Shown: positions 24,707 through 60,713 of the stretch, in pieces
How the letters are laid out: every line of letters starts with the position of its first letter
Position numbering within the stretch: the first letter of the stretch is position 1
NCBI GenBank assembly: GCA_003193925.1
Contig: PSPG01000008.1
Location: 64,001-128,000, forward strand
Length of the DNA stretch: 64,000 nucleotides
From: Candidatus Thalassarchaeum betae
Lineage (GTDB): Archaea > Thermoplasmatota > Poseidoniia > Poseidoniales > Thalassarchaeaceae
Direction of reading: 5' to 3'
Position numbers and translations under genes: made by a program
The notes under the pieces: generated by a model
What the model was told of the DNA's origin: nothing
Databases searched by the model: none
What the model saw: the letters and a program-made list of their open reading frames with translations, nothing else

Positions 24707-26209
24707 ATGAGTGCTTACGACGAGTTGCTGGAGCGACTGAAGGACATCGATATGATCGGCCAGATTGGCGGCCTCTTGGGCTGGGACCAAGAGGTCCTGA
24801 TGCCGCCCAAGGCCGCCGCACTGCGCGCCGAGCAGCTGGCTTGGGCCTCCAAGGCAGGTCACATGCGACTGACCGACCCCCGAATCGGGGAGCTGCTCGA
24901 GGAGCTCGAGGCTAGCGAGGAGCTGGACGATGTCCAAGCGGCCAACATCAGGCTCGCTCGCGAGTCGTATGACAAGGCCACCAAGCTGCCGACCGAGTTC
25001 GTCGCCGAGATGGCCAAGCACCGCTCCGAGTCACTGGTATCATGGACCGAGGCTCGGGCGAAGGACGACTTCTCAATCTTCCGCGATAATCTCGCCAAGT
25101 CAATCGACCTCGCCCGCCAGAAAGCGGACTACCTAGGCTTTGACGAGTTGCGCTACGACGCGCTGCTAGATATCTACGAGACTGGGCTGACCGTGGCTAG
25201 GCTCGACCCGCTGTTCGCAGGATTGCGAGACAGCGTCGCGCCCCTGATCAAAGCCGTAGTAGAGAGCGAAAACCGCCCCGACATGTCGTGGGTAGAGGGG
25301 AACTCCTGGGCTCAGTCCGGACAGGAGGCGCTCAGTCAAGGGGTGACCGAGGCCATCGGATTCGACTTCGACGCCGGCCGCCGGGACGTCTCGACCCACC
25401 CGTTCTGCGGCGGGACGAACCCGGACGACGTGCGCTGGACGACTCGCTACAGCGAGTCCGACCCGTTCGGCTCACTGTACGGCTCGATGCACGAGACAGG
25501 TCACGGGACCTATGAGCAGGGGCGCCGGCGCGACCTTGACTTCCAGCCCGCCGGCGAGGCCAATGGATTGGGCGTCCATGAGAGCCAGAGCAGGATGTGG
25601 GAGAACCAAGTGGGTCGCTCAAGGGAGTTCTGCGAGTGGGTCCTGCCGCTGTGGCAGCAGCACTTCCCCGAGAACATGGAGGGTGTCAGCGCCAAGGCGC
25701 TGTGGCAGGCCGTCAACCTCGTCGAGCCGAGCCTGATACGGGTCGAGGCCGACGAGGCCACCTACAACCTCCACATCATGATCCGCTACGAGATCGAGAA
25801 GAGGCTAATCGCCGGTGACCTCGAGGTCGACGACCTGCCGGACGCCTGGGACGACATGTACGAGAAGTTCCTCGGTATCCGCGCACCCAACCGCGCCCTC
25901 GGCGTGCTGCAGGACATCCACTGGTCCATGGGGGCCTTCGGCTACTTCCCCACCTACACTCTGGGCAATTTGTACGCCGCGCAACTGCTGGCCGCCGCGC
26001 GCGAGGACCTGCCCGAGCACGACGAGCAGATCAGGCGCGGTGAGTTCGCACCACTGCTCGCTTGGATGCGCGAGCACGTGCACCAACGCGGCAGCATACT
26101 CGAGCCAGCCGACCTCATCGAGGAGGCGACCGGCTCGCCGCCCTCCCCCGACGCTTTCGTCGAGTATCTGCAAGACAAAGTCGAGCGGCTCTATGGCGTC
26201 ACTGCCTGA
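24707..26209 (+). CDS. Carboxypeptidase M32 (Taq family)
   Basis: 'HPF', 'HETGH', 'HESQSR', 'IRVEADE', 'QDIHW', 'GYFPTY'. Confidence 0.96.
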   Translation: MSAYDELLERLKDIDMIGQIGGLLGWDQEVLMPPKAAALRAEQLAWASKAGHMRLTDPRIGELLEELEASEELDDVQAANIRLARESYDKATKLPTEFVAEMAKHRSESLVSWTEARAKDDFSIFRDNLAKSIDLARQKADYLGFDELRYDALLDIYETGLTVARLDPLFAGLRDSVAPLIKAVVESENRPDMSWVEGNSWAQSGQEALSQGVTEAIGFDFDAGRRDVSTHPFCGGTNPDDVRWTTRYSESDPFGSLYGSMHETGHGTYEQGRRRDLDFQPAGEANGLGVHESQSRMWENQVGRSREFCEWVLPLWQQHFPENMEGVSAKALWQAVNLVEPSLIRVEADEATYNLHIMIRYEIEKRLIAGDLEVDDLPDAWDDMYEKFLGIRAPNRALGVLQDIHWSMGAFGYFPTYTLGNLYAAQLLAAAREDLPEHDEQIRRGEFAPLLAWMREHVHQRGSILEPADLIEEATGSPPSPDAFVEYLQDKVERLYGVTA

Positions 26210-26259
26210 GCGACTTGCCTACGCGAAAGCCCGATAGCGGAGCATCGGGGTGTGGAGCC

Positions 26260-27348
26260 ATGGGCGGCCATACCTTGGAGGGGCTCGCATCGCTGGTGCG
26301 CAACCTCGGCAGCGCCTGCACCTTGCTGCGCATTGCCGACGACGACCTGCTGGCTGGCTCGCAAGAAGGAGAGCTGATATGCTGGTCAGTCGAATCCGGC
26401 ACCGAGCGCTGGAGGGTCGAGGTCGACGGGCCATTGTCCGACCTCGCCATCGACGGCGGTCGTGTCTACGCCTCGGCCTCAGCCAGCCTGCACGCGATTG
26501 ACCTGGATACTGGCGAGATTCTCTGGAGTCGGGGGCTCGAGGGGGCGAGCGACTACGTCCAAGCATGGGACGGCAGCGTCTGGGCTGTGTCCTCGGTCTA
26601 TGAGATCGAGGTTTCCGACTACACCGAGTCGACTGTCTGGAGATTCGACGGAATGGGGGAGCTGCAGGAGCGCTGGACTGTGCCTGAACGCGCTTGGCAC
26701 TTCGGACTGCACGAAGACGGGGGCGTCCTGCTCGGTCTCGGCAGACCCCGCTGCGGGTTCCTGAGAATCCGAAGCGGTGAGGAGCCTGAGCATCACCAGA
26801 TCGAGGGTGACAGCCCCGTCACAGTCGGAGCCTGCGGTTCGAGCGGTCGGTTCCTGATTGGCCACTCCGACGGAAGCGTCAGTACGATCGTCGGCTCCGA
26901 CGCGAAGACCGCAGGCGAGGGGTCGTCGCCGGTTCGTGCCATCACCGGCCACGGCGACGATTGGATCGCCGGTCAGGAATCGGGCCAAGTCGTCTCGAGC
27001 CGGGGTTGGACCACGACGGCGGCCGGCTCGGTGGACTCGCTCTCGATGGGGCCCTCGACATCCGAGGGCGAAGCCGTCTGGGTATCCTCGTGGAAAGGAG
27101 ACGGGGTGAGAATATCGGTCCTCGACCCAGACGGCGGCGGCTCCCTGCTGGAGTTCGACCACGGCCATAGGACAAGGCACATCCAAGCGAGCGCAGGTAA
27201 AGTCGTCCTAGGGGACTCCAGGGGGCGAATTCACCTGATCGAGGCAGGGGTCCTTACAAGGCGCGTGAAGGAATCGCCCGTGCCTGCCTCTGACGATGAG
27301 AATCGGGAGCGCCTGATGGAGCGTCTGAGGCAGCTTCGCGGCTCTTGA
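26260..27348 (+). CDS. PQQ-like/BamB beta-propeller protein
   Basis: Repeats such as 'ESGTERW', 'AIDLDTGEILW'. Confidence 0.7.
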   Translation: MGGHTLEGLASLVRNLGSACTLLRIADDDLLAGSQEGELICWSVESGTERWRVEVDGPLSDLAIDGGRVYASASASLHAIDLDTGEILWSRGLEGASDYVQAWDGSVWAVSSVYEIEVSDYTESTVWRFDGMGELQERWTVPERAWHFGLHEDGGVLLGLGRPRCGFLRIRSGEEPEHHQIEGDSPVTVGACGSSGRFLIGHSDGSVSTIVGSDAKTAGEGSSPVRAITGHGDDWIAGQESGQVVSSRGWTTTAAGSVDSLSMGPSTSEGEAVWVSSWKGDGVRISVLDPDGGGSLLEFDHGHRTRHIQASAGKVVLGDSRGRIHLIEAGVLTRRVKESPVPASDDENRERLMERLRQLRGS

Positions 27349-27404
27349 ATTCAATAGAAATTAACAGTTGGGTACCCCTGTTTCCGGTGGACTGCGGGTC
27401 TGTT

Positions 27405-27420
27405 TGAAAAGGTTTAAGTG
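27405..27420 (+). promoter_or_regulatory. Putative BRE-TATA promoter pointing into the repeat locus
   Basis: TGAAAAGGTTTAAGTG: purine-rich BRE followed by TTTAAG; no credible CDS downstream. Confidence 0.55.
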
Positions 27421-27439
27421 GGTACACCTGCCCTGTCAT

Positions 27440-28300
27440 CTTTGCCGCTTCTTTGGAGTGGTGTGGGGGCGCTTCGGCGCGACCCGCGGGCCACAGAACG
27501 AAGCCCCGAGAAAGGGGCGGCGGAACCCGGGATCTGGAAAGAGAACGGGGAAGAGTCGGAACGCCTGTAGGCGGGAAGACGGCGGGAGAGCCGAAGCGGA
27601 CGAGAGTGGAGAGAACCGGAGAGAACTGGACGAAAGGAAGGGGGAGGAAGGGGAAAGGAAGCTGGAGGAAGCGGAGGGGGAAGCTGAGGAAAACGTAACC
27701 GAACTGGAGAGAACTGGACGCAAGGAAGGGGAAGGAAGGGGAAAACACAACCGAGGCAGAGGAACCATCCCGAAGAGATACGCGCGGAAGGGGGAGGAGA
27801 CGAACCTGGAGGCGGCGTGGAGAACGAAGTGGAGAGACCGACGGGAACCGGACGCAAGGAAGGGGAAGAACGGGAAGGAAGCGGAGGAGGAACACGAGTG
27901 AACGAGGGCGGAGAGATCCGTGGAGGAAGCTGTATCGGACCGTGGAGAGAACCGGAGAGAACTGGACGCAAGGAAGGGGGAGGAAGGGGAAGGAAGCGGA
28001 GAACGCGAAGGGGGGGGAAACGCCCTTGGAGAGAGAAGATGAGCGAAGTGGAGAGAACCGGAGAGAACTGGACGCAAGGAAGGGGGAGGAAGGGGAAGGA
28101 AGCGGAGCGCGACGAAGTGGAGAGAACCGGAGAGAACTGGACGCAAGGAAGGGGGAGGAAGGGGAAGGAAGCGGAGGAGTCTACCCGGGGAAGCCCGGGC
28201 CTTAGGGCCCGGGGGACACCCGGACCCTGCGGAGTATGCAGGGGGGGAAGCTCCCCCATGTGCGGAACCCCCTGCTGCTCCCACCTGTACCGCCAAGTAC
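27440..28300 (+). ncRNA. Candidate long purine-rich ncRNA (hypothetical)
   Basis: Promoter-like element, C(UUCG)G hairpin 27469-27480, hairpin 27503-27518, repeat array, hairpin train 28184-28257. Confidence 0.35.
27606..28176 (+). repeat. Purine-rich interspaced 60-nt repeat array
   Basis: GTGGAGAGAACCGGAGAGAACTGGACGCAAGGAAGGGGGAGGAAGGGGAAGGAAGCGGAG exact at 27942, 28048 and 28117; variants at 27606, ~27701 (partial) and 27829. Confidence 0.95.
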
Positions 28301-28387
28301 GTCATCGGCCCACCTTGTCAGCGTTACAATCATTGCGGAGCGTTTCGCTCCGCTTGAGACGGTTTCGGAAGGCTGAGAAAATCACCG

Positions 28388-29989
<1,602 letters not shown>

Positions 29990-30079: not shown

Positions 30080-30565
30080 CTAGATTCGCTCGACACTGAC
30101 GATTTGCTGTGGGTCATAGGGCCGGTCACCTGGCTTGATGTCGCAATTCTCGATTCGGTACACGTTCTCCATACCCTCGATGACCTCTCCGAAGACTGCG
30201 TGGTTGCCATCGAGCCACGGTGTGGGCACGGTGGTGAGGAAGAACTGCGAGCCGCCGGTGTTGCGGCCCGCGTTGGCCATCGAGAACAGCCCGGGACGGT
30301 CGTGTCGCTTGGCGAGGGCTGAGGGCTCGCACGGAATCTTCCACCCAGGCCCCCCAGTACCAGCGGCTCGGCTGTCCGGGTCCCTCGAGCGCGGGCAGCC
30401 TCCTTGGATCATGAAATCCTTGATGACGCGGTGGAAGTGCTGGCCATTGTAGAACCCGGCATCGACGAGCTTGAGGAAGTTCCCCGTGGTCTCCGGGCAG
30501 TCCTCGGTGTACAGTGCGATCAGTATCTCTCCGGCGCTGGTTGTCATCTTGACTACAGTAGGCAT
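30080..30565 (-). CDS. Cyclophilin-type peptidyl-prolyl isomerase
   Basis: 'FHRVIKDFMIQGG', 'SMANAGRNTGGSQFF', 'WLDGNHAVFG'. Confidence 0.96.
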   Translation of the reverse strand: MPTVVKMTTSAGEILIALYTEDCPETTGNFLKLVDAGFYNGQHFHRVIKDFMIQGGCPRSRDPDSRAAGTGGPGWKIPCEPSALAKRHDRPGLFSMANAGRNTGGSQFFLTTVPTPWLDGNHAVFGEVIEGMENVYRIENCDIKPGDRPYDPQQIVSVERI

Positions 30566-30644
30566 GGACTCGGGAACGCTCACAGGCACAAGAGCATATG
30601 TGTGTCGCCCTAACCCTAATGATGGTGTCCGGAACTGGCCCAAT

Positions 30645-31814
30645 GTGAGTACCCTTAGCGACTACGACTGCCCCAAGTGCTCGACGAAACTCAGGGTGGA
30701 GTCAGCCGAGGAAGTAGATGGCGTCGACTTGCTGGTCTGCATCAAGTGCTGGGGCCTCGCAGTACAGGCCAAGACGATGCAAGGAATCGTTCCTGACGAA
30801 GTACGGGAGAAAATCGAGAACGCGGGGTTCAAGCACCCAGAGGGGCGCAGCTGCCCGGTTTGCCCCTCTACGATGATGGAAATAGCAGTGCCCAAACCAT
30901 TCGGATCAGAGGACCGAGCGAGCGAGCACGATGTGAAGATAGACATCTGCGGGGACTGCGCCACCATCTGGTTCGATGCAGGCGAGCTCGACACCCTGAA
31001 CGGCATCAAGCCGAAGCTGCGTAAGGTGGAGATGGAGGATAGCGCTGACAAGATAACGGCGGTTGTCGACGACTCGAGTTCCTCAGTGAAGTCGAGGAGG
31101 GTCGCGGGGATTTTCCTAGCATCACTCGGGTTGATGTTGCTGGGTGCAGGTTCGGGTGCCTGCTGGTCCATCACATCACTTCTGGTGATCCTGGGAGGCG
31201 GGATCCTTGCCATTACCGTGGCCCCGGAGACCGGACTTGAGAAGGGGGCCTGCAGCCGCTGCGGCCTCGAGGACGAGACGATTGGTTGGACTTGCCAGAG
31301 GGCGGGGTGCGAGGCTCCCATCTGCACCACATGCAGGTCGGCGGGTCAAGATCCGGCCGCGCAATACGTGAAGACCCTAGGTGGCGGTGCGTTGATGGTG
31401 GCGGGAGTCGTGCTTGGTATCGGTCTCCTCGTCGTCACTGAAGGGGCTGTGGCTGAAGGATTCCTCCCGGCAGCAGCCGGTTACGAATTGATTTCAGACG
31501 ATGAGGAGGAAGGTCTGCTAGTCTGCAAGGAATGCAAAAAGGAGATGGGTGCCCTTCAGTTCGCCGATTCCGATGCTCGCACAGAAAGAAAGGAATGGAC
31601 TGAGAAGGAAAAGAAGACGGCGGCAGGGGGGCCTTGGGATGTTGTCGATTCTTTCGCCGAGGGGGTGAAGGATGCGGAGTCAAAGAGTGCTCAGCGCGAA
31701 GAGTACCTGAAATCGCAGACCCACTGCCTACACATTGACGGGAAGACTGTCAAAAGGTGCCGCAGGATGGTTTTTCGCAAGTCAGGCTACTGCTACAGAC
31801 ACCAACGGGAGTGA
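30645..31814 (+). CDS. Membrane protein with multiple zinc fingers (zf-TFIIB-like, C-terminal C3H)
   Basis: 'CPKC..CIKC', 'CPVC..IDICGDCATIWFDAGEL', 2-3 TM segments, 'C-x10-C-x9-CYRH'; start at GTG 30645 inferred. Confidence 0.75.
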   Translation: MSTLSDYDCPKCSTKLRVESAEEVDGVDLLVCIKCWGLAVQAKTMQGIVPDEVREKIENAGFKHPEGRSCPVCPSTMMEIAVPKPFGSEDRASEHDVKIDICGDCATIWFDAGELDTLNGIKPKLRKVEMEDSADKITAVVDDSSSSVKSRRVAGIFLASLGLMLLGAGSGACWSITSLLVILGGGILAITVAPETGLEKGACSRCGLEDETIGWTCQRAGCEAPICTTCRSAGQDPAAQYVKTLGGGALMVAGVVLGIGLLVVTEGAVAEGFLPAAAGYELISDDEEEGLLVCKECKKEMGALQFADSDARTERKEWTEKEKKTAAGGPWDVVDSFAEGVKDAESKSAQREEYLKSQTHCLHIDGKTVKRCRRMVFRKSGYCYRHQRE

Positions 31815-60639: not shown

Positions 60640-60713
60640 TGGAGCACGGGCCGGGATTTGCACCCGGGTCCATGGATCTGCAGTCCATTGCATAGCTGCT
60701 CTGCCACCCGTGC
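60640..60713 (-). tRNA. tRNA-Cys (GCA), CCA encoded, no intron
   Basis: GCACGGG TGGCAGAGCAGCTATGCA ATGGA CT GCA GA TCCAT GGAC CCGGG TGCAAAT CCCGG CCCGTGC T CCA; U73 discriminator. Confidence 0.95.

Follow-up and report, generated by a model that had tools for sequence, protein, structure and literature searches.

The region between the two convergent genes at positions 27,349 to 28,387 of a 64,000-nucleotide (nt) stretch of the Candidatus Thalassarchaeum betae genome (GenBank assembly GCA_003193925.1, contig PSPG01000008.1; hereafter the window, numbered along its forward strand) is almost certainly the single-copy gene of a large structured noncoding RNA (ncRNA), encoded on the + strand behind its own archaeal promoter and inherited vertically at one site in the Poseidoniales. 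The RNA spans about 27444 to about 28290-28312, roughly 850 bases, and combines a conserved 5' domain and a conserved 3' domain with a fast-evolving modular interior. What characterizes large structured ncRNAs in general is found here as well: a transcript of its own, compensatory changes, and conservation beyond close relatives. An earlier interpretation, made from the sequence alone, had proposed a long + strand ncRNA with its own promoter, structured ends and a repeated purine module, all of which stand; its further proposals of an unstructured interior, a helix closing the two ends and a role as a sponge are not supported or need changing. The parts of the locus are as follows.

27381-27396, + strand: conserved element TTTCCGGTGGACTGCG, lying about 50-65 nt upstream of where the RNA begins
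27406-27418, + strand: promoter resembling a transcription factor B recognition element (BRE) and TATA box, GAAAAGG plus TTTAAG, assigned from position and conservation
27439-27582, + strand: 5' domain (covariance models R1 and R3), made up of a leader hairpin (27444-27463), the helix of the UUCG hairpin (about 27464-27489), the hairpin at 27503-27518 and two more hairpins
27444, + strand: probable 5' end of the RNA, placed by foreign letters on library contigs, which cannot prove a start
27463-27470 and 28277-28284: the words GTGGGGGC and GCTCCCAC, earlier proposed to pair, read in the sequence
27469-27480, + strand: UUCG hairpin GCGC-UUCG-GCGC, read in the sequence
27503-27518, + strand: hairpin GCCCC-GAGAAA-GGGGC, read in the sequence
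27583-28171, + strand: purine-rich interior with six module copies
27628, 27716, 27850, 27964, 28070 and 28139, + strand: starts of the module core GGACG(C/A)AAGGAA..., each after a small CCGG-AGAGAA-CUGG hairpin
28044-28176, + strand: perfect tandem duplication of 69 nt, 1.9 copies, 100% matches, score 266
28172-28288, + strand: 3' domain (model R2), with a nested hairpin (CCCGGG...CCCGG) and a long one that GGAGU/GCUCC closes, followed by the tail CCACCUGU
28184-28257, + strand: GC-rich hairpins, read in the sequence
28287-28312, + strand: candidate 3' trailer, a GUAC-CGCCAA-GUAC hairpin with the conserved word AUCGGCCCA
28335-28353, no strand assigned: hairpin GCGGAGCG-TTTC-..., an inverted repeat between the RNA and the fumC stop codon

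Three covariance models were built, R1 and later R3 for the 5' domain and R2 for the 3' domain, together with a 22-nt leader word. In the model-fitted alignment of the 5' domain, 22 of 37 pairs are changed on both sides, and paired cells make up 94.4%, as compared with 40-47% when the partners are slid; the corresponding values for the 3' domain are 18 of 32 pairs and 92.7% versus 36-56%. Examination of the hairpins at the fumC-adjacent loci of relatives, which had been suggested as a check, thus found compensatory changes in both end domains, and the structured ends foreseen from the single sequence are real. For the full length of the molecule, 26 RNAs from seven genera were aligned with MAFFT on sequence only and a structure was obtained with RNAalifold. 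The alignment holds throughout, and the structure comprises 144 pairs in 38 helices, with 90.6% of cells paired versus 35-46% when slid. The count of pairs changed on both sides is a more robust measure than the percentage paired, and here it amounts to 88 of 144 versus 27-33 when slid; the observed values were reached by 0 of 500 shuffles. The fold of the single sequence is modestly better than those of its shuffles (z = -3.0, 20 shuffles).

Long-range helices (alignment columns 157-161/386-390, 395-399/594-598 and 459-462/553-556) and hairpins with compensatory changes organise the interior, which is therefore not simply unstructured, as had been supposed: it aligns across seven genera, its helices carry compensatory changes, and the repeated module is itself predicted to fold. 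Nor is the pairing proposed for the ends, GTGGGGGC with GCTCCCAC, supported. GUGGGG pairs locally with ACCCGC, one pair of this helix being GC in 20 sequences and AU in 6, and GCUCC pairs with GGAGU inside the 3' domain in a helix that never varies, so that the alignment neither proves nor refutes it. A pseudoknot joining the G-rich 5' strand to the C-rich 3' loop was likewise dropped because the G-rich strand pairs locally with covariation. Two of the relatives' loci (L006 and L009) contain an extra GNRA-capped hairpin, CCCAGG-GAAA-CCUGGG, within the 3' domain (columns 63-81 of the 3'-domain alignment); hairpin insertions of this kind are typical of structured RNAs.

The inward-pointing promoter noted in the single sequence proves to be the same promoter at a fixed offset in relatives. 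A TTTAWN hexamer stands exactly 20 nt upstream of the first model base at 26 of 26 loci in seven genera, with a purine-rich BRE-like word before it and CCCTG after it, and the promoter is also kept in the diverged loci described below. Its distance from 27444 is 26-31 nt, a spacing that fits archaeal promoter geometry. Farther upstream, most of the 26 loci have the word TTTCCRGTGKACTGCG at a constant offset, and it is conserved across genera as strongly as the RNA; the TTTCCGGTGGACTGCG element to which it corresponds here is a candidate regulator site or, alternatively, may belong to the end of the transcript of the upstream PQQ-like gene. The 5' end of the RNA is probably at 27444. Four contigs of the public sequencing run X7 carry foreign letters directly before this position that resemble a template-switch oligo, and letters resembling an Illumina adapter precede 27450 in run X1. 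One X1 contig continues 12 letters beyond 28287 before adapter-like letters begin, and together these contig-end letters suggest that the RNA ends near 27444 and 28290-28300. The 3' end may lie anywhere from about 28288 to about 28312 because in most loci a conserved word, UCGGCCCA (28304-28312 here), follows the end of the model by 5-25 nt, and in relatives T runs often come after it. Direction of the promoter, invariant G-U pairs (for example columns 6-25, 569-582 and 920-969) and the template-switch-like letters before 27444 all place the RNA on the + strand, in agreement with the earlier assignment.

The stretch or part of it is found in 20 public runs, 16 of which are on record as RNA, from 12 studies (one run names none). 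Contigs of four RNA-labelled runs from four studies tile 27439-28290, many of them with 0 differences, as in the pieces 27494-27632, 27714-27971, 27744-27971, 27981-28073 and 28156-28234. As this evidence consists of contigs, strand and level are not readable from it, and the summed word depth, up to 557,453 in X1 and 160,078 in X7, is a poor measure of expression. Positions 26800-27438 are uncovered in all four runs and 28291-28900 in three, with a depth of 1.6-8.7 in X1, which does not count as evidence. The contig joints listed are skips between repeats, from 27733/27738 to 28220 and from 27742 to 28112, plus one back-step between repeats; no junction of the 3' end with the 5' end, as expected of a circular RNA formed by end joining, is among them, a weak test given that it relies on contigs and that the listing leaves out 69 loose ends.

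Conservation extends well beyond the genus. The element is single-copy in its own genome and is found at the same place in 17 of 20 genomes of the same genus, with 76-84% DNA identity; in the same comparison, the PQQ-like protein is 42-73% identical and FumC 84-95%. R1 matches 96 of the 151 genomes of the family, once per genome with few exceptions. Matches are frequent in genera g1 (13/14), g4 (14/15), g11 (14/15), g13 (11/13), g15 (12/14), g17 (14/14) and g18 (10/12) and weak and infrequent in g5 (4/15) and g12 (3/15), and R1 finds none in g2 (0/2), g3 (0/5), g14 (0/2) or g16 (0/14). At 40 loci in seven genera that were chosen beforehand by an R1 or DNA match, R2 lies on the strand of R1 in all 40, and the RNA measures 479-850 nt end to end. 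With the promoter present at 26 of 26 loci and the 5' and 3' domains together at 40 of 40, the conservation in relatives on which the ncRNA proposal depended is evident. In other genera, fumC is adjacent to the RNA at 29 of 30 loci and the PQQ-like gene at 26 of 30.

The leader word, TTGCYGCTYC-NNN-GRAGTGGTG (22 nt, at most one mismatch), reaches further, to 114 of the 301 genomes of the order, nearly always once. By family, it is found in 105 of 149 genomes of f1, 8 of 149 of f3 and 0 of 2 of f2, genera g2 and g14 being included among those with the word. The reversed word, used as a control, matches in 4 genomes; outside the order, the leader word is found in 0 of 10 genomes of the sister family and in 2 of about 296 from the rest of the phylum, both with a mismatch. 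The weak R1 matches are real: these loci have the same site, the same AAAGGTTTAT promoter, the same leader and a homologous 3' hairpin with CUCCCA over 800-1000 nt. Diverged RNAs reach up to about 1100 nt. The order PQQ-like gene, RNA, fumC is kept in 9 of 10 loci fetched from the leader-word scan. In four genomes of the common f3 genera g7, g8 and g10, the place next to fumC is taken instead by a membrane-protein gene. More diverged versions of the RNA, with the leader and promoter retained, occur in further genera of both families of the Poseidoniales (Marine Group II). A few genome bins, G007 (contigs C34 and C42), G089, G166 and G295, contain the leader or 5' domain twice, on separate contigs, probably reflecting mixed populations rather than true paralogs.

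The features that the sequence-only reading had listed can all be read directly from the sequence at the positions it gave. The 589 bases of the core (27583-28171) comprise 273 G, 205 A, 84 C and 27 T, that is, 81% purine, and include 69 GGA, 28 GGAG and 26 GGAAG words. Over 400-nt windows, the 64-kb window has a mean purine fraction of 0.514 (standard deviation 0.044), with a peak of 0.80 at 27601. Among 29,466 windows of 300 nt in the 1.48-Mb genome, only 12 have at least 70% or at most 30% purine, and all of them lie in the RNA locus, so that the bias is far beyond chance. Purine makes up 68-81% of the interior in each of the seven genera, including where the locus has a GC content of just 36%. 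The sequence-only reading took the locus to be the only kb-scale gap of the genome; two crude codon-position screens listed other low-periodicity stretches but also dropped real genes, and they do not separate true gaps from genes of atypical composition.

Within this core, the repeated purine module proposed earlier is confirmed as six copies of a unit of about 60 nt, spaced 88, 134, 114, 106 and 69 nt apart. The perfect 69-nt tandem duplication is the youngest step of amplification; its junction is tiled by RNA-library contigs with 0-2 differences, from which, as they are short, copy number is not provable. The core sequence GGACG(C/A)AAGGAA occurs 80 times in 40 RNAs, flanked by the dinucleotides CC/GG in 40 copies, CU/GG in 24, CU/AG in 12, UC/GA in 3 and AC/GG in 1, and never by CC/AG. 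The more general pattern GGA-N-GNRA-N'-RAA occurs 85 times in the 40 RNAs versus 5.3 +/- 2.2 times in shuffles, with N/N' being C/G in 73 modules, G/C in 10 (nine of them in g15) and unpaired in 2. In its predicted fold, the module (GGAC-GCAA-GGAA) has a GNRA tetraloop on one Watson-Crick pair, below which come three stacked purine-purine pairs and a stem of two pairs. Most genera have two copies at fixed places. Within the genus of the window the number ranges from 2 to 6, the window representing the maximum and its relatives having 2-5, and by a 22-mer test g13 and g18 have none. One copy here replaces a GNRA hairpin of relatives (alignment columns about 321-356). The purine array is thus a genus-level amplification of a GNRA-capped hairpin that most genera carry twice. 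How freely the interior can be remodelled is shown by the locus L004 (G019:C38), in which about 80 nt of ordinary pyrimidine-containing sequence takes the place of some of the purine interior (roughly positions 260-340 of the intergenic region).

No known RNA family accounts for the locus, as the sequence-only reading had also held. A permissive scan with Rfam 15 (E up to 1, 26500-29500) returned only ilvH, at 25.6 bits versus a cut-off of 55.1, and a scan of the whole window at gathering scores returned only a tRNA (60643-60713). The archaeal RNase P RNA (RF00373; C16:20489-20780, 227.3 bits) and the signal recognition particle RNA (RF01857; C19:97784-98096, 123.3 bits) both score above their cut-offs on other contigs of the genome, with no match at the RNA locus. 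Clustered regularly interspaced short palindromic repeats (CRISPR) were also considered and rejected: the units of about 60 nt are spaced 69-134 nt apart, genera share the supposed "spacers", and the entire stretch can be aligned as one RNA.

Further complicating annotation, databases list the opposite strand as protein. Two antisense frames have products on deposit:

27436-28305, - strand: spurious frame of 289 amino acids, rich in S, P, L and F
27254-27895, - strand: second frame of 213 amino acids

Their exact products are deposited with NCBI, JGI/IMG and ENA and belong to clusters that have 26 and 7 members, and 129 protein clusters are similar to the first at E <= 0.001, one of them being an "Uncharacterized protein" from a fosmid of an uncultured marine group II/III euryarchaeote. 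These deposits are what favors a gene for a low-complexity disordered protein, a reading to which we give hardly any credence. The lack of T on one strand is the only reason why all six frames are open, and no Pfam domain is on record for the matched antisense products. The GC content of the frames is flat over codon positions (0.59-0.67), in contrast to that of fumC (0.81 at third and 0.46 at second positions); the repeat spacings of 88, 134, 114, 106 and 69 nt are not all multiples of 3; and the deposited product of a relative, P0052, follows one antisense frame of the window for residues 1-45 and another for 47-134. Covariation, promoter and G-U pairs all point instead to a + strand RNA. 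The name "collagen-like", mentioned by Hou et al. 2016 for disordered proteins discussed below, is absent: the 10 matches to the + strand frame and the antisense matches alike are called only "uncharacterized" or "hypothetical". The antisense deposits therefore look like misannotations. Equally negligible is the chance that the locus has no function as RNA and is a minisatellite, a DNA-level element such as a triplex-forming tract or an origin, or an assembly artefact. A tandemly repeated polypurine tract whose copy number varies among relatives would suit such an explanation, but the element occurs once in the genome, is conserved at one site across the order and shows compensatory base-pair changes, and RNA-library contigs identical to the window tile the locus, which also speaks against the misassembly that had been raised as an alternative.

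What the RNA does is a matter of more graded judgment. Our best guess, a tentative one, is an abundant multivalent ribonucleoprotein scaffold, in which the conserved ends would fold the molecule and hold core partners while the interior modules would offer multiple equivalent binding sites for a protein. In the genus of the window, tandem duplication would have taken the module from two to as many as six copies, and this amplification is proposed to have produced both a higher valency and the T-poor purine core. Copy number that varies within a genus is typical of titrating RNAs, and its range of 2-6 here favors a scaffold over a catalytic core. A ribozyme or the RNA subunit of an enzyme, with the invariant 5' and 3' stretches as catalytic core and the interior as periphery, is doubtful. 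It would explain the blocks that are invariant in seven genera, such as CGCGGGCCACA (5' domain) and GGAGU...GCUCCCACC (3' domain), and the retention of leader and 3' hairpin even where the interior has been replaced, but the Rfam scan gives no likeness to known ribozymes, the neighboring genes suggest no substrate, and tandem amplification of one hairpin would be unexpected in a catalytic RNA. Somewhat less doubtful, if still unlikely, is a self-assembling architectural RNA whose ends and capped hairpins would make RNA-RNA contacts to form multimers or particles, the modules adding contact points. The bacterial large RNAs ROOL, GOLLD and OLE have been reported to form defined multimers or particles by themselves, and the size of the present RNA (479-850 nt, and to about 1100 nt in diverged loci), its dense covariation-supported helices, its many tetraloop hairpins and its presence in many RNA libraries would all be in keeping with such behavior. 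Against it, Rfam yields no match, the ROOL, GOLLD and OLE models included, no tetraloop receptor was identified, and variation in size and interior between genera would exceed what is expected of a closed symmetric assembly.

The sponge of the sequence-only reading, in which single-stranded GGA and GGAG words would soak up ribosomes by way of the anti-Shine-Dalgarno sequence, or else a CsrA-like protein or RNAs rich in pyrimidine, is much harder to sustain and is now very improbable. GGA is about 1.5-fold over mononucleotide shuffles in six of seven genera, and the minimum free energy centroid leaves most of the core open; yet GGAGG is about as frequent as composition predicts (7.3 versus 6.4 expected in the genus of the window, and similarly elsewhere), and the GGA words sit inside the module, which is predicted to fold. 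A search for CsrA (PF02599) found none in the genome, which is 91.8% complete, while the controls responded in three reference genomes, so that the comparison with such sponges survives as an analogy only. Sites complementary to the 28-nt module are absent elsewhere in the genome at up to 5 mismatches, and an antisense regulator, for which a second genomic site complementary to the module would be needed, was rejected. An improbable reading, a shade less so than the sponge, joins three bold claims: that the RNA is the first giant structured RNA of the OLE/ROOL class in Archaea and, ribosomal RNA aside, the dominant transcript of Marine Group II cells, that its modules act as decoys of the sarcin-ricin loop, which might titrate translational GTPases and so tune or hibernate translation, or might absorb ribotoxins that target the loop, and that published "disordered-protein mRNAs" are this RNA read on the wrong strand.

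Several points weigh against the multivalent scaffold and against the picture of structure and abundance behind it. The percentage of paired cells given above for the full-length structure is inflated, because the structure was derived from the same alignment and the relatives are not independent, and abundance rests on contig depth plus one paper rather than on counted reads. No partner protein is known for the RNA, and GNRA and UUCG hairpins would suit RNA-RNA tertiary or intermolecular contacts equally well. Moreover, g13 lacks the module as such and g18 has it in reduced form, and the diverged versions (g5, g12, g14 and family f3) have a different interior that is rich in hairpins and not purine-biased, so that multivalent purine display is not a family-wide property.

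The flanking genes are convergent, as had been described: a PQQ_2/BamB-like open reading frame (ORF; 26062-27348, + strand) lies on one side and a fumarase C-like ORF (28388-29989, - strand) on the other. The hairpin at 28335-28353, a word of which recurs in several relatives from several genera, is a candidate terminator for one or both of the convergent transcripts. As the PQQ-like beta-propeller is adjacent to the RNA across the order, it is a candidate RNA partner. Its translation probably begins at an internal Met around residue 66, given that the longer frame runs into the M32 carboxypeptidase gene that precedes it, and no obvious signal peptide is seen by eye. The fumarase C-like protein (533 amino acids) has a weak match to the ribbon-helix-helix domain PF01402 at residues 12-48 (E 2.6e-4, 21.3 bits versus 20.5). 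The alignment with relatives from several genera begins at residue 1, which suggests conservation of the N-terminal extension; a fusion of ribbon-helix-helix domain and fumarase would be unusual. Two genes away, an ORF of 447 amino acids (30471-31814, + strand) encodes a TFIIB-type zinc ribbon (PF13453, E 4.1e-5).

Marine Group II ranks among the most abundant archaeal groups of surface seawater, and to our knowledge none of its members has been cultured. A large RNA that is specific to this order, is strongly supported by covariation, appears in many ocean libraries and has no Rfam family is therefore a new target for RNA structural biology and cell physiology. It is also a source of error, as gene callers predict from its T-free strand low-complexity "proteins", which NCBI, JGI and ENA already contain, and in unstranded libraries its reads would be credited to antisense frames. 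R1, R2, R3 and the 22-nt leader word now permit annotation of the family.

The family, which is without Rfam curation, was possibly glimpsed in 2016. Hou et al. 2016 (PMC5069720) describe Tan1 (Thalassoarchaea ncRNA 1), a structured and highly abundant ncRNA of Marine Group II archaea in a metatranscriptome, 229 nt long and rank five in RNA-Seq, with homologs only in Thalassoarchaea sequences. They also attribute 93% of the RNA-Seq reads on Marine Group II contigs to 13 mRNAs for disordered proteins, nine of them in two homolog clusters, and describe a library prepared using random hexamers, with an adapter at each end; from this description it is taken to be unstranded (PMC5069720). Like the present RNA, Tan1 is an abundant structured ncRNA of Marine Group II, but its 229 nt contrast with 479-850 nt or more here; it could be part of this RNA or a different RNA. 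Because antisense frames of the locus are deposited as proteins and the library is apparently unstranded, Tan1 and/or the 13 "mRNAs" are suspected to be the present RNA, in which case the conclusion on disordered-protein mRNAs may need re-reading. No other description was found by the literature searches made, and neither PMC9723583 nor PMC8049014 mentions the RNA in the passages covered.

The RNA can be compared with several better-studied ones. At the level of the module, its top (A, C, GNRA, G, G, A, A) agrees at most positions with the sarcin-ricin loop of the genome's own 23S rRNA (...GUACGAGAGGAAC...), whereas the module has G in place of the U in the bulged-G motif, and its lower stem is different; as a C-G-closed GNRA loop beside an A-G pair is common, this resemblance may serve as a lead only. 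CsrB/RsmZ-type RNAs, which titrate protein, likewise have repeated short GGA hairpin modules whose copy number varies between relatives, and multivalent display is likely in both. In those RNAs, however, GGA is found in hairpin loops, as compared with the predicted purine-purine stack below a GNRA loop here, and the present RNA differs further in its archaeal host, larger size, structured ends and long-range helices, with neither a CsrA gene nor an Rfam match. With yeast telomerase RNA, a flexible scaffold in which neither the template region nor the reverse transcriptase has a counterpart in evidence here, nor any other partner, the likeness is one of architecture only, a conserved core combined with fast-evolving arms of variable size. 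OLE, ROOL and GOLLD differ in that the present RNA matches none of their Rfam models, is archaeal, is confined to one order and has an interior that is 68-81% purine in seven genera. With these RNAs it nevertheless shares a length of several hundred nt, many covarying helices, apparent abundance, and a gene context that says little about function.

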